Source: a virus (taxonomy: Duplodnaviria > Caudoviricetes). From it: 64,000 bases of DNA. The notes under the pieces are model-generated. The model saw only the letters and a program-made list of their open reading frames with translations, was not told the DNA's origin and searched no databases. Location: the IMG/VR virus record IMGVR_UViG_3300031998_000028, positions 32,001 through 96,000 of that record, one strand, 5' to 3'. Both the position numbers and the translations under genes were made by a program. Shown here one piece after another: positions 36,284 to 48,533 of this stretch. Position 1 is the stretch's first letter, and the number at the start of each line of letters is the position of its first letter.

Positions 36284-36358
36284 TAGACCCATACAGCAAA
36301 ACTGTAGAAATGCAATAAAAATATATTGGATATTTATGATTACATTTATAAGGGTCTA
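36284..36358 (+). ncRNA. CAGC-stem (Y-like) RNA copy 1
   Basis: TAGACCC-ATACAGCAA...GGGTCTA. Confidence 0.7.
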
Positions 36359-40377: not shown

Positions 40378-40532
40378 AAGGCTCAGGCAGCAAAAAATTT
40401 TTTTGTAGGTCTTACCTGCTTCTTGATATTGAAGATATATCACAACTGGATAATATATCGAGTTGTTCCACGTGGGCGCAATCACACGTTAAAAATGGTC
40501 GAGAACGCATTACTCGTAAAAACGTGAGCCTT
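40378..40532 (+). ncRNA. CAGC-stem (Y-like) RNA copy 2
   Basis: AAGGCTC-AGGCAGCAA...GAGCCTT. Confidence 0.6.
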
Positions 40533-40873: not shown

Positions 40874-40880
40874 CATATGG

Positions 40881-40955
40881 TCCCCTATGGTGTAATGGTA
40901 GCATAGCTGGCTCTAACCCAGCAGATACCCGTTCAAATCGAGGTTGGGGGTGCCA
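40881..40955 (+). tRNA. Amber-decoding tRNA (anticodon CTA), probably tRNA-Gln
   Basis: GCTGG-CT-CTA-AC-CCAGC; D arm TGGTGTAATGGTAGCA resembles the tRNA-Gln at 44487; weak 1-72 pair; G73; CCA. Confidence 0.88.
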
Positions 40956-41987: not shown

Positions 41988-42078
41988 GCTGGGATAGTTT
42001 AATGGTAAAACAGCGGGTTTATACCCCGTAGCGCCAGATTAGCGGCTTTTCAGGGTTCGAGTCCCTGTCCCAGTCCCA
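41988..42078 (+). tRNA. tRNA with TAT anticodon (Ile) and long variable arm
   Basis: GCGGG-TTTATAC-CCCGT; ~20-nt variable region; CCA. Confidence 0.8.
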
Positions 42079-43746: not shown

Positions 43747-43825
43747 CGGGAAGTAGAGGAAGAGGGACCTCGCCTGTTTTGGGAACAGGACATTAGTGCG
43801 GCTTCGAGTGCTGCCTTCCCGACCA
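43747..43825 (+). tRNA. tRNA-Pro(TGG)
   Basis: CCTGT-TTTGGGA-ACAGG; C1-G72; CCA. Confidence 0.82.
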
Positions 43826-43843
43826 ATTAAAGGAGAATATAAT

Positions 43844-44416
43844 ATGGGAAAAAGTTTGACATTAGAAGAAATTAACGCTCGTTTTGAGAATAGTTTTGAT
43901 CAAAAGGTTATTGCAACTAAATATTTAAATAAGCGTTCTCCAGTTGAATTAAAATGCTTAGAGTGTGGACATGAATGGTCACAACCGGCCGCATCTGTAC
44001 TATTTAATGAGCATCATAAATGTCCAAATTGCGGCATTGTTAAAAAGATAAAGCTTAAATGTGCTTATTGTGGAAAAGAAATTGAGCGATTTCCAAGCGA
44101 CATTAAGGCAAATAAAACAGGTTATTTTTATTGTAGTCACACTTGTGGTAATCGTCATAAAAATCAATTACGCATGGAAAGTGGCGAATGGGACAATTCA
44201 GTAAATTATCGCTATAAAGCTATGTATAATTTACCACATAAGTGTGCTGTATGTGGATGGGCAGAAGATGAGCGTATTTTAGAAGTTCATCATAAGGACG
44301 AAGATAGAAACAATAATGCATTAGATAATTTAACCATTTTATGCCCAACTTGTCACAGAAAAATTACACTTGGGTACTATAAATTAACTGAGGATTATAA
44401 ATTAATTGAGATATAA
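43844..44416 (+). CDS. Free-standing HNH endonuclease with Zn ribbons
   Basis: Several CxxC pairs; LEVHHKD..R.NN...NL..LCPTCH. Confidence 0.87.
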   Translation: MGKSLTLEEINARFENSFDQKVIATKYLNKRSPVELKCLECGHEWSQPAASVLFNEHHKCPNCGIVKKIKLKCAYCGKEIERFPSDIKANKTGYFYCSHTCGNRHKNQLRMESGEWDNSVNYRYKAMYNLPHKCAVCGWAEDERILEVHHKDEDRNNNALDNLTILCPTCHRKITLGYYKLTEDYKLIEI

Positions 44417-45608: not shown

Positions 45609-45674
45609 AAGACCCGTACAGCAAATATAACTTACAAAACTGCAAATTTTTGGAAGAAGTTTTTATTGGGTCTT
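45609..45674 (+). ncRNA. CAGC-stem (Y-like) RNA copy 3
   Basis: AAGACCC-GTACAGCAA...GGGTCTT. Confidence 0.7.
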
Positions 45675-45680
45675 GTATAT

Positions 45681-45767
45681 GCACGAGTGCTGCAATAGGA
45701 AGCCAGGCATGGTTGAGGTCCATGTGTCCGATAGGACATAGGGGTTCAAGTCCCCTCTCGTGTACCA
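45681..45767 (+). tRNA. tRNA-Leu(GAG)
   Basis: CATGG-TTGAGGT-CCATG; long arm; CCA. Confidence 0.88.
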
Positions 45768-45796
45768 AATAACTAAAAAGAGAAGTGAGAAAAAAA

Positions 45797-46272
45797 TGAT
45801 AAGTCCAACTCATGGAGAAATAACTCTGCGGCAGACCGCACTCTTAATCAAAAATTTCATAGAGTTAGACCCGGATTCACAATATGCAATCTATATTGGT
45901 TCTGATAGTCAAAATACTTACTACACCAAGATGGTAACTGTCATCGCAGTCCATAAGGTCGGCCGCGGTGGTCAGTACTTTTATGAGGTTTCCAAATACG
46001 ACAAGATTCGTGATATTCGCACGAAGCTTTATACGGAAACTCAACTTAGCTTGGATATGACAGGTAGGCTTTTTGATGAATTTGAAGCTCTTGGGTTTGA
46101 ATATGATGCAGATAATATCATGTTCTGTATTCATATTGACGCAGGTAACGGTGGTCCAAGTGGTCAAGTAATACCTGAAGTAGTTGGATATGTTCATTCT
46201 ATGGGTTATAACTGCGAAGTTAAACCAGATAGTCCGATTGCTTCTTGTATTGCAGATAGAATAAGTAAGTAA
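45797..46272 (+). CDS. RNase H-like YkuK (DUF458) family protein
   Basis: IGSDSQ..E...S..IHIDAG..G.S..KPDS..AS..AD motifs. Confidence 0.8.
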
Positions 46273-46279
46273 GTAAATA

Positions 46280-46368
46280 AAGGCGCGCACAGCTAAATCT
46301 ATTATAGCATAATGGTAATGCACCCGACTTGTAATCAGGATATACGGTTCGAATCCGTTTAGCGCCTT
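46280..46368 (+). ncRNA. CAGC-stem (Y-like) RNA copy 4, carrying a tRNA-Thr(TGT)-like D/anticodon/T body
   Basis: AAGGCGC-GCACAGCTA...GCGCCTT enclosing D, anticodon and T arms; no CCA. Confidence 0.7.
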
Positions 46369-46379
46369 GAATAAATAAA

Positions 46380-46452
46380 AAGACACTTGCAGCAAATCTT
46401 TTCTTTAATCGCCATTGAATTATAATATTTTGATTAGATATTAGGGTGTCTT
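46380..46452 (+). ncRNA. CAGC-stem (Y-like) RNA copy 5
   Basis: AAGACAC-TTGCAGCAA...GTGTCTT. Confidence 0.7.
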
Positions 46453-46464
46453 GATACAAACTAA

Positions 46465-46580
46465 TAGACCCATACAGCAATCATTCTTATAGAGAATATG
46501 TTATTGGTTCGATTCCAATTATGCAAGCCATAAATTTTGCGTATTGAGCAATAGGTAGCTCAGTTCTACTAAAGGGTCTA
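46465..46580 (+). ncRNA. CAGC-stem (Y-like) RNA copy 6 with a circularly permuted tRNA domain (YrlA-like)
   Basis: TAGACCC-ATACAGCAA...GGGTCTA enclosing T arm, closed acceptor hairpin and D arm, in that order. Confidence 0.78.
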
Positions 46581-46633
46581 GTCTTTATCTCGACCGAGAT
46601 AAATCATTTTGGAGAAAAAGGAGAAAATAAAAC

Positions 46634-48160
46634 ATGAATTTTACTAACGCTCTTGATAAGGAGTTCAACTATAAGTTGACCGAAAATGGCGGCCTTGCGC
46701 ATAAGTCTACCTGTGACGCGCTCTATGATATGTTTGCCCTGGGTGGCGCATATCGTAGTCGTAGCGATGAGGATTGTGTCTTCCTTTTCATGAAGGCATT
46801 TGAGGAAAGTCCTACTTATGCTATGAAGTGCCTCTTCTATCTGCGTGACATTTTGCAGGGACAGGGCGAACGTCGCTTCTTCCGTGTCTGCATTAAGTGG
46901 GCCGCGGACAACCATCCTTTGGAGATGGAGCGCAATCTCAAGTACGTACCGGAATACGGTCGTTGGGATGACCTATATGCCTTCGTAGGCACCAAGCTGG
47001 AAGCGAGTATGTGGGCCTTCATGTATGAGCAGTTCCGTCTGGATATGGCTTCCAAGACTCCTTCTCTGCTCGGAAAGTGGCTCAAGTCTGAGAATACTTC
47101 CAGCAAGGAGTCTCGCGTCCTTGGCGCAAAGACTCGTAAGGCTCTCGGTATGACTGCGCCTGCCTACCGCAAGGCTCTGTCTTCTCTTCGTAAGCGCATC
47201 AATGTCCTTGAGCGTCTTATGAGTGAGCGCCGTTGGGATGAAATCGAGTTCGATAAAATCCCTTCTAAGGCTGGCCTCATCTACAAGAACGCCTTCGCGC
47301 GTCACGATGTGGAGCGCGCCCGCAATAAGGCTGTGCAGACTTACGAGCAGTTCGCTAAGGATAAGAACACTAAAGTTAACGCCAAGGCTCTATATCCTTA
47401 CGAGGTAGTCGAAAAGGCTATTGACGTGTTCGGTGGTATCTACTGGCGTTGGAACCGCCATGAAGTGCCTTTGGATGATACCAATCGTCTGATGGTCAAC
47501 AAGTACTGGGAGAATCTGGCAGAGTATATCTCTAAGCTGGATATGAACGCTCTTTGTGTTGTGGATACCAGCGGCTCTATGCATGGTACTCCTATTGACA
47601 TCGCAATCTCTCTCGGTATGATTGCGGCTGATAAGGCTCATGGTCCTTTCCATGGACGCTACATCAGCTTCAGTTCTCGTCCTCAGCTCATTAAGGTTGA
47701 GGGTGTGGATTTCGTAGATAAGGTTCGCCGCATCTATGAAACCAATCTTTGCGAGAACACCAATCTCGAAGCAACTTTCGATATGCTTCTCAATGTGGCT
47801 CAGAAGAACCACATGAAGCAGAAGGATTTGCCAGATACCATTATCGTCATCAGCGATATGGAGATTGACTGTGCATATGGTGGCTATGGTTGGAGTTCTG
47901 ACCATAGCGCGGCTCGTGCAAAGAACCGCACCATGATGGAGAATATGCGTCGTAAGTGGGCACGTGCAGGCTATAAGCTTCCTAAGATGGTGTACTGGAA
48001 CGTGGATGCGCGCCAGGATACATTCTTGGATGATGGCCCAGACGTAACTTACGTTAGCGGTGCAAGTGCTATCTTGTTTGAGCAAGTCGCAAAGGGCATC
48101 ACCGCGCAGGACCTCATGTTCGAGAAGCTCGACAGTGAGCGTTACGCAAAAATAAAATAA
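46634..48160 (+). CDS. Ro60/TROVE-like helical + vWA protein (DUF2828-type)
   Basis: N-terminal TENG..ST, LFYLRD..G.GER, YGRWDDL and KW motifs; vWA MIDAS VVDTSGSM, ISDME and YWNV. No TAG; GC-rich third positions. Confidence 0.78.
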   Translation: MNFTNALDKEFNYKLTENGGLAHKSTCDALYDMFALGGAYRSRSDEDCVFLFMKAFEESPTYAMKCLFYLRDILQGQGERRFFRVCIKWAADNHPLEMERNLKYVPEYGRWDDLYAFVGTKLEASMWAFMYEQFRLDMASKTPSLLGKWLKSENTSSKESRVLGAKTRKALGMTAPAYRKALSSLRKRINVLERLMSERRWDEIEFDKIPSKAGLIYKNAFARHDVERARNKAVQTYEQFAKDKNTKVNAKALYPYEVVEKAIDVFGGIYWRWNRHEVPLDDTNRLMVNKYWENLAEYISKLDMNALCVVDTSGSMHGTPIDIAISLGMIAADKAHGPFHGRYISFSSRPQLIKVEGVDFVDKVRRIYETNLCENTNLEATFDMLLNVAQKNHMKQKDLPDTIIVISDMEIDCAYGGYGWSSDHSAARAKNRTMMENMRRKWARAGYKLPKMVYWNVDARQDTFLDDGPDVTYVSGASAILFEQVAKGITAQDLMFEKLDSERYAKIK

Positions 48161-48457: not shown

Positions 48458-48533
48458 GGTTTGATAGTATAGTTGGTAATTATAAGGCACTTGTAATGCT
48501 TAGACCTCGGTTCAAATCCGAGTCAAACCTCCA
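48458..48533 (+). tRNA. tRNA-Thr(TGT)
   Basis: AGGCA-CTTGTAA-TGCTT; CCA. Confidence 0.88.

Follow-up and report, generated by a model that had tools for sequence, protein, structure and literature searches.

The element at positions 46280–46368 of the window (the whole 64-kb stretch analysed here, part of a 114,915-bp phage record that is about 96% complete) is an RNA gene of 89 nt in a rumen or gut phage. Its product, RNA1, consists of a terminal stem with an adjoining conserved motif, here called the handle, and of a tRNA body without acceptor stem. By analogy with known Ro60 systems, we consider it probable, at roughly two chances in three, that RNA1 is a 'handle plus cargo' non-coding RNA and a Y-RNA-like partner of the Ro60-fold DUF2828 protein encoded next to it. 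New in this analysis are the breadth of the class of acceptor-less RNAs with the tRNA arms in native order, as well as its signature of a conserved loop frame combined with a variable anticodon.

RNA1 and the handle RNAs of the phage

RNA1 is composed of the following parts:

46280..46368, + strand: RNA1, handle-embedded acceptor-less tRNA mimic with D, anticodon and T arms in native order (from the sequence, the Rfam tRNA model and the orthologues in L001, L002 and L003)
46280..46286, + strand: closing stem, 5' strand AAGGCGC, pairs with 46362-46368
46289..46295, + strand: handle motif ACAGCUA, single-stranded, by analogy the presumed protein-binding site
46307..46321, + strand: D arm GCAT-AATGGTA-ATGC, with A14, G18 and G19 present
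46323..46339, + strand: anticodon arm CCCGA-CUUGUAA-UCAGG, third pair a C.A mismatch
46344..46358, + strand: T arm ACGG-UUCGAAU-CCGU
46362..46368, + strand: closing stem, 3' strand GCGCCTT, pairs with 46280-46286 (folding and orthologue comparison)

The initial annotation had described the D arm, the anticodon arm with one mismatch and the T arm in normal order, enclosed by the ends AAGGCGC and GCGCCTT with ACAGC, and all of these are found in place, ACAGC at 46289–46293. The segment between the 5' stem and the D arm consists of GCA, CAGCUA, AAUCUAU and UA; the TA resembling U8-A9 is at 46305–46306. A single A separates the D arm from the anticodon arm, the anticodon UGU is at 46330–46332, the variable stretch before the T arm is ATAT (AUAU in the RNA), and the T arm is followed by just three nucleotides (UUA) before the closing stem resumes with its 3' strand.

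The missing acceptor helix and CCA, likewise part of the initial annotation, are borne out by the sequence, which offers at most one acceptor-like pair, and by two tRNA searches. ARAGORN makes no tRNA call at RNA1, and the Rfam tRNA model (RF00005) matches 46302–46361 with its positions 5–66 only (42.3 bits versus a gathering score of 29; E = 1.2e-7, local search), leaving model positions 1–4 and 67–71 without a match. The D, anticodon and T arms of the model are present with the conserved elbow nucleotides; the 7-bp acceptor stem and the 3' discriminator and CCA adjoining the T arm are absent. Lacking an acceptor end and CCA, RNA1 is predicted to be non-chargeable as a tRNA. The region 46150–46700 yields nothing but tRNA matches in Rfam 15, even at E ≤ 10. 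In minimum free energy folding, RNA1 forms the closing stem and its T arm; the folding energy does not differ significantly from that of shuffled sequences (z = −1.06); the support for the structure is therefore comparative.

The phage also encodes an intact tRNA-Thr(TGT), which had been noted at 48458 and is called by ARAGORN at 48458–48533. RNA1 shares with this tRNA the three arms, U8, A14, G18 and G19, the T-loop UUCGAAU and an identical 7-nt anticodon loop CTTGTAA (CUUGUAA in the RNA); it differs by the lack of an acceptor stem, a discriminator base and CCA and by an 18-nt insert that includes ACAGCUA and separates the 5' stem from the D arm. The true tRNAs of the phage encode their CCA. 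The body of RNA1 is identical to tRNA-Thr(UGU) at 40 of 53 positions, mostly universal tRNA positions together with the identical loop. A recent duplication of tRNA-Thr(UGU) as the origin of RNA1 was rejected at this level of identity.

The handle is defined as a terminal stem of 7 bp whose 5' strand precedes 3 nt and CAGC(A/U)A, and whose complementary strand ends the RNA; RNA1 reads AAGGCGC-GCA-CAGCTA...GCGCCTT. The 115-kb genome contains six handles, all on the + strand and all within the window, versus no match to a reversed control pattern. CAGC is invariant in all six copies and in the family. The window further harbours 33 tRNA genes, all on the + strand (ARAGORN). RNA1, RNA2 and RNA3 are arranged in tandem before the DUF2828 gene; the remaining copies and the neighbouring features are:

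36284..36358, + strand: further handle RNA, begins 1 nt past tRNA-Gly
40378..40532, + strand: further handle RNA, 155 nt
45609..45674, + strand: further handle RNA, between tRNA-Val and tRNA-Leu
45760..46272, + strand: PF04308 (DUF458) RNase H-like gene, directly upstream of RNA1
46380..46452, + strand: RNA2, handle RNA with a plain hairpin interior, AAGACAC..GTGTCTT
46465..46580, + strand: RNA3, handle RNA, permuted tRNA mimic (V hairpin, T arm, acceptor-like hairpin, D arm)
46584..46602, + strand: hairpin TTATCTCG-ACC-GAGATAA, past RNA3 and ahead of the ribosome-binding site of the DUF2828 gene
46634..48160, + strand: 508-aa DUF2828 + DUF7788 protein, Ro60-like HEAT-repeat ring plus vWA domain, MIDAS DxSxS

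The interiors of the handle RNAs are of three kinds, namely a plain hairpin, a permuted tRNA mimic and the native D-anticodon-T order of RNA1. RNA1 and the permuted copy at 46465–46580 thus have the opposite geometries that the initial annotation had attributed to them. The hairpin at 46584–46602 is kept in the three closest related phages, with differing loops and one G-U change, and may be a site of processing, attenuation or autoregulation. No sigma-70 promoter or intrinsic terminator was found around or between the handle RNAs; the copies within the tRNA array are presumably released from the tRNA-array transcript. No Rfam family and no paper describing the phage handle RNAs were found.

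The association of motif and stem is not confined to the window. A search of viral contigs with the 508-aa protein as query resulted in 80 related loci. Together with the window, these loci contain 122 ACAGCAA sites on the + strand, of which 85 have an exact 7-bp partner stem precisely 3 nt upstream, versus 1 of 59 on the − strand; the number of sites with a stem falls to 8–10 when the register is shifted by 8–20 nt. The inner stem positions covary freely (CAC/GTG, CGC/GCG, CCC/GGG, CTC/GAG and others).

Conservation of native-order mimics in other phages

The three closest loci (L001–L003), whose proteins are 93, 85 and 75% identical to that of the window, each contain an orthologue of RNA1. 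In the alignment of the four orthologues, window included, 96% of the cells are paired, and three pairs, of which the closing stem has one and the anticodon stem two, change on both sides; this is matched in only 8 of 500 shuffles, and pairing drops to 28–45% when the partner columns are slid as a control. The closing stem changes from G-C to A-U in L001 and from C-G to U-G in L002, and the anticodon stem of L002 (CTTGT/ACAAG) differs from that of RNA1 on both sides of two pairs. The anticodon is UGU in three of the four orthologues and UAU in L001; the U that follows CAGC, instead of A, is common to RNA1, L001 and L003. Random decay of a tRNA-Thr, which the initial annotation had named as the outcome that would speak against a functional element, is not seen: the helices are kept, with compensatory changes.

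The native order is found well beyond these orthologues. Ten distinct native-order mimics occur in the first 80 loci, and at least 43 after a scan of viral contigs by RNA pattern only. A first scan of the collection with ACAGC-N45-75-GGTTCRANTCC returned mostly chance matches (6 of 119 among the matches listed); the second, with AA added to the ACAGC motif, worked, and its counts likewise refer to the matches listed. Distant copies were misaligned by MAFFT, and RNAalifold gave only the D and T stems; the arms were therefore parsed with an anchored script whose false-positive rate was measured (about 20% on shuffled AT-rich interiors) and which imposes no loop sequence. Of the candidates anchored on handle and T loop, 34 of 44 parse as D-anticodon-T, versus 8.8 ± 2.5 after interior shuffling, and many pair types are found in all stems of the class. 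A covariance model (R1) built from the four close orthologues gave 128 matches in which native-order mimics, real tRNAs and other handle RNAs are inseparable, and is excluded from the counts. A nucleotide search of cultured phages gave no matches.

The anticodon loops of the class follow a common frame. Among the 37 seven-base loops in the matches listed, C32 is found in 32, U33 in 36, A37 in 35 and A38 in 33, while positions 34–36 hold at least 20 different triplets, including UGU, UUU, GAU, GAA, UCU, UAU, GUA, GUU, UCC, CAU, GAG and GGU. Homologues hence retain the handle and the arms and vary the anticodon, which is the pattern that the initial annotation had proposed to look for. Of 73 family members, 31 contain a hairpin with a YUNNNAA loop on a 5-bp stem, compared to 9 for the reverse complement and 6.5 ± 2.5 for shuffled sequences, and such anticodon-arm-like hairpins are also present in 'plain' handle RNAs. 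A looser test with YUNNNRN loops gives 19 versus 15 in the reverse complement, no gain over the control.

Between handle and body, the acceptor-like helix ranges from a full 7 bp (L072:257–367 and L246) over 3–6 bp in others to none. RNA1 is at the 'none' end of this range, with one pair and a 3-nt linker, and its handle therefore truly substitutes for the acceptor stem. We note that the acceptor stem within the handle of the L072 mimic is perfect, and that two native-order mimics, L004:1936–2050 and L072:257–367, have 8-nt anticodon loops (AUUUGUAA), a size typical of frameshift-suppressor tRNAs.

The DUF2828 protein and its association with handle RNAs

RNA1 lies 266 nt upstream of the gene for the 508-aa protein, on the same strand. 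The only Pfam matches of this protein are DUF2828 and DUF7788, and it matches PHROG 850 ('RNA-binding protein'). Its vWA domain matches PDB 8s05, and the MIDAS residues DxSxS...T...D are invariant in the C-terminal domain of an 89-sequence alignment. A single-sequence AlphaFold model is unusable (pLDDT 44.7); AlphaFold2 with the 89-sequence alignment yields a model with pLDDT 91.5 and pTM 0.91. The 13 best Foldseek matches of this model in the PDB are all Ro60/TROVE structures (E from 5e-9 to 4e-6, moderate TM-scores of 0.37–0.58, about 540–590 aligned columns), comprising Xenopus and human Ro60, Deinococcus Rsr and the Ro60 of Thermus phage phiLo (9kop and 9l5y); isolated vWA domains rank next. 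The Pfam TROVE family (PF05731) is not matched by the protein, and neither phmmer nor a profile search against PDB sequences gives a Ro60 match. On the strength of the modelled structure, the neighbour has a Ro60 fold, in agreement with the Ro-like protein of the initial annotation. The DUF2828 family is very large, with 6106 representative clusters at 50% identity, and tblastn finds homologues of the 508-aa protein in 705 cultured-phage records. We also note that a DUF458 gene neighbours the DUF2828 gene in two phages, the present one and the KVP40-like Vibrio phage phi-Grn1 (L313:6478–7002), which suggests a conserved gene pair and DUF458 as a candidate nuclease partner of the ribonucleoprotein.

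Handles and the DUF2828 gene tend to occur together. Of 228 listed loci that were retrieved with the RNA pattern alone, 17 encode the protein; a handle is present in 15 of these 17, and at least two handles are found in 11 of them versus 22 of the 211 others. The linkage is as much with the tRNA cluster as with the gene, since in most of the distant loci the native-order RNAs are located 1–3 kb off the gene, inside tRNA arrays. Five lineages of cultured phages were inspected. In Bacillus phage Tsamsa the gene lies behind the tRNA array, in and beyond which there are at least five handle RNAs, including a permuted tRNA mimic. In two Felix-O1-like phages of E. coli, adrianh and Bas63, the gene (in Bas63 it is bas63_0130, whose product gp130 is the orthologue of the DUF2828 protein of the window) is directly followed by the tRNA array, with 3–4 handle RNAs in its gaps, one of them permuted. 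Listeria phage P100 has three tandem handles just before gp165. In mycobacteriophage CELFI three tandem AT-rich handles (L314:4462–4709) are located in the 346-nt gap after gp53, annotated as 'RNA-binding protein', of an otherwise GC-rich genome. No handle is present within 5 kb of the gene in Vibrio phage phi-Grn1.

Several of these regions contain further features. Bas63 (Escherichia phage JohannRWettstein) has two small hypothetical ORFs on the opposite strand, bas63_0137 and bas63_0138 (L311:2730–3004), of which at least bas63_0137 overlies a 126-nt handle RNA with a permuted mimic (L311:2763–2888); both are probably mis-annotations. One of the CELFI handle RNAs forms the hairpin UUUCA-CUGUUAA-UGAAA, an Asn(GUU)-like anticodon arm. 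In P100 the stretch within 5 kb downstream of the DUF2828 gene (L312:7771–11497) encodes an RtcB-type tRNA splicing ligase (gp160), an RNA ligase (gp155) and a metal-dependent phosphohydrolase (gp162), an RNA-repair context that fits the theme of tRNA damage.

In the proposed mechanism, the handle (stem plus ACAGCWA) would be the docking site for the DUF2828 protein, as in Ro60 and Y RNA. Because it occupies the place of the acceptor stem in RNA1, there would be neither a CCA end nor tRNA-type charging, and the acceptor-less tRNA body would be held out to a partner that recognises tRNA, such as an enzyme of tRNA modification or processing, an exoribonuclease or a defence nuclease of the host that is directed against tRNA. 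The handle RNAs would be transcribed together with the tRNAs and subsequently freed. Since the loop frame is conserved and the anticodon is free, we think that the partner reads anticodon arms; the part under selection in native-order members is this frame, which points to a tRNA-recognising target. We infer the binding of RNA1 by the DUF2828 protein, its processing and its function by analogy; the tethering of RNA1 to the protein, also put forward in the initial annotation, is suggested by gene adjacency and co-occurrence.

Known systems and alternative explanations

A Y RNA has one end that recruits an effector, for example PNPase. At the other, Ro60 contacts a conserved helix and the 5' strand of this helix (PMC4201824). 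Both orientations of a tRNA mimic are on record for Ro60 partners, YrlA being permuted and Yrn1 native with an anticodon-like arm (PMC4201824). By design, the closest known RNA to RNA1 is Yrn1 of Deinococcus radiodurans, and the closest to RNA3 is YrlA. Yrn1, which is bound by Ro60/Rsr, resembles RNA1 in a terminal stem of 5' and 3' ends that serves as the protein-binding module (a presumed role in RNA1) and in a distal tRNA-like module with T arm and anticodon-like arm in native orientation, opposite to YrlA (PMC4201824). It differs in that it has only partial D-loop features, a 6-nt 'anticodon' loop and a Ro-binding helix like that of metazoan Y RNAs, whereas in RNA1 the D, T and anticodon arms are all canonical, the last with a 7-nt loop, U33 and A37, the motif is ACAGCWA, and the neighbour is a DUF2828 protein rather than a Pfam-TROVE Ro60. 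YrlA (RF02553), known from bacteria and mycobacteriophages, is likewise a tRNA mimic with a link to Ro60, and its gene adjoins that of the protein in the same orientation, a placement near a Ro60-family gene that is typical of Y RNAs and is also found for RNA1, and its T and D arms mimic the tRNA elbow. In YrlA, however, the order is V, T, acceptor-like hairpin and D, as in RNA3 and unlike the D, anticodon and T order of RNA1; the Ro stem is at the anticodon position and there is no anticodon arm. YrlA carries the motif GNCGAAN0-1G near its 5' end, in place of which RNA1 has ACAGCUA, and RNA1 has no RF02553 match.

Thermus phage phiLo offers a second comparison. Its Ro60 is a phage protein of the same fold with the partner RNAs Yrl1 and Yrl2 encoded just upstream, the position in which RNA1 would have its partner role; it binds these phage Y-like RNAs and forms complexes with host PNPase (PMC12135203). 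Yrl1 and Yrl2 differ from RNA1 by a stem-bulge-stem that contains a CGAA motif, and they are not reported to have a full tRNA body.

The Class I RNAs of dictyostelids share with the handle RNAs a short terminal stem, a conserved motif by the 5' strand (CCUUACAGCAA in Class I RNAs) and a variable remainder (PMC7919456). An example from the supplement is GTTGAC-CTTACAGCAA...GTCAAC (PMC7919456). UUACAGCAA is also the commonest form in the phage handle family. The stem is present in RNA1, and other members of the handle family read UUACAGCAA; between the 11 nt after the stem of RNA1, GCACAGCUAAA, and the 11-nt Class I motif CCUUACAGCAA, only ACAGC and one A match. Class I RNAs are 42–65 nt long, eukaryotic, transcribed from DUSE promoters and bound by the RRM protein Rnp1A/Cibp, with no tRNA-like cargo described, whereas RNA1 has 89 nt, is encoded in a phage genome rather than a dictyostelid one and carries ACAGCUA. 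We note that outgroup candidates which the authors rejected, from Arabidopsis (TGTTTTC-ATTACAGCAATC...GAAAACTG) and Capsaspora, have the same stem-plus-motif handle (PMC7919456). DUF2828 proteins are reported in plants, and on account of these handles and the plant DUF2828 proteins the pairing of handle and protein may extend to eukaryotes.

Several other readings of RNA1 can be weighed against this evidence. It is hardly credible that RNA1 is a decaying, functionless pseudogene of tRNA-Thr, although ARAGORN is silent at RNA1 and its best match among the phage tRNAs is Thr(UGU): the likeness is limited to universal positions and the loop, phages with a protein of only 75–93% identity retain all four helices, compensatory changes included, the design recurs in phages with the protein at ~55–60%, and the handle is precisely conserved. 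This reading is contradicted by the pairing of the orthologues, the wider class and the loop statistics, and as judged by sequence comparison RNA1 is not a decaying tRNA. Nor is it at all likely that RNA1 is a caged or unusual pre-tRNA whose handle is a paired leader and trailer and whose processing frees a working tRNA-Thr. The YrlA of M. smegmatis is cut by RNase P and receives CCA (PMC4201824), and some mimics do contain a complete or partial acceptor stem, but RNA1 with its single possible pair and short linker does not; moreover, the handle is common to RNAs without tRNA body, and the phage has CCA-encoding tRNAs that already include tRNA-Thr(UGU). Somewhat less remote, but still improbable, is a cis-regulatory leader, in which RNA1–RNA3 would be autoregulatory binding sites in the 5' UTR of the DUF2828 mRNA and not free RNAs. 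Three tandem handles directly upstream of the gene, here and in P100, the conserved hairpin before the ribosome-binding site and the lack of a promoter or terminator consensus between RNA1 and RNA3 would all agree with such a leader; it does not account for the three other copies in the genome, 1–10 kb away and between tRNAs, nor for handles downstream of the gene in CELFI and Felix-O1-like phages, and a binding site needs no elaborate tRNA-like cargo.

We give more weight to a role of RNA1 as a decoy or sponge that acts on an anticodon nuclease or another tRNA-directed defence of the host and is stabilised by the Ro60-like protein, but consider it unlikely on balance; RNA1 would then present a Thr(UGU)-type anticodon arm that is unable to enter translation. 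The kept loop frame with varying anticodons across at least 43 RNAs, the enrichment of anticodon-arm mimics in the handle family, the 33 tRNAs of the phage, the loop shared with its own tRNA-Thr(UGU) and the RtcB-type and other RNA ligase genes close to the P100 gene are consistent with a decoy, as is the role of gp130 of Bas63 in countering Ppl (10.1101/2024.10.10.617714). On the other hand, the decoy has no known target nuclease, the proposed activity of Ppl is that of a PHP enzyme that degrades DNA and not that of a tRNA nuclease, many family members have no anticodon-like hairpin, and the C.A or U.U mismatch of the anticodon stem is left unexplained. The preferred reading of RNA1 as a Y-RNA-like partner has points against it as well, namely a handle motif that differs from the GNCGAA/CGAA of known bacterial and phage Y RNAs, a protein without TROVE call in Pfam, structural matches with TM-scores that are moderate, a predicted folding energy no better than that of shuffles, the location of native-order RNAs within tRNA arrays in most distant loci, and the false-positive rate of the arm-parsing script.

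Functional evidence comes from a single source, a preprint, and is indirect. Deletion of g130 renders Bas63 sensitive to the Ppl defence, and complementation restores resistance; the authors described the Ro60-like fold of gp130 and guessed that some neighbouring 'tRNA genes' may be Y RNAs (10.1101/2024.10.10.617714). As handle and gene are both present in tractable phages (Bas63, other Felix-O1-like phages, P100 and mycobacteriophages) and gp130 of Bas63 has an anti-defence phenotype, the Y-RNA-like hypothesis is directly testable. Ro60 and Y RNA have long been puzzling, not least for the tRNA mimicry of the bacterial Y RNAs; DUF2828, a very large family annotated without function, gains a candidate RNA partner. 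The handle also flags likely mis-annotations, both 'pseudo-tRNAs' and small ORFs that overlie handle RNAs. As a speculation that we ourselves rate as unlikely, the handle (stem plus ACAGCAA) and DUF2828 would constitute one ancient ribonucleoprotein platform, ranging from phages of many bacterial phyla to eukaryotes, with RNA1-type members as anticodon displays against host tRNA-targeting immunity. If true, this would explain the orphan Class I RNAs of Dictyostelium, and the cargo would be a programmable display of tRNA parts, in which RNA1-type displays sense, sponge or misdirect that immunity.

The tRNA array of the window has features of its own. At 91 nt, the tRNA-Ile(UAU) at 41988–42078 includes a long extra arm 3' of its anticodon arm, which is atypical of Ile tRNAs. 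The ARAGORN tRNA at 40880–40955 with anticodon CUA ('Pyl') is an amber-suppressor tRNA, which suggests TAG recoding in the phage. Inside the array, an ORF at 43796–44416 encodes an HNH endonuclease with zinc-finger/TRASH-like domains.
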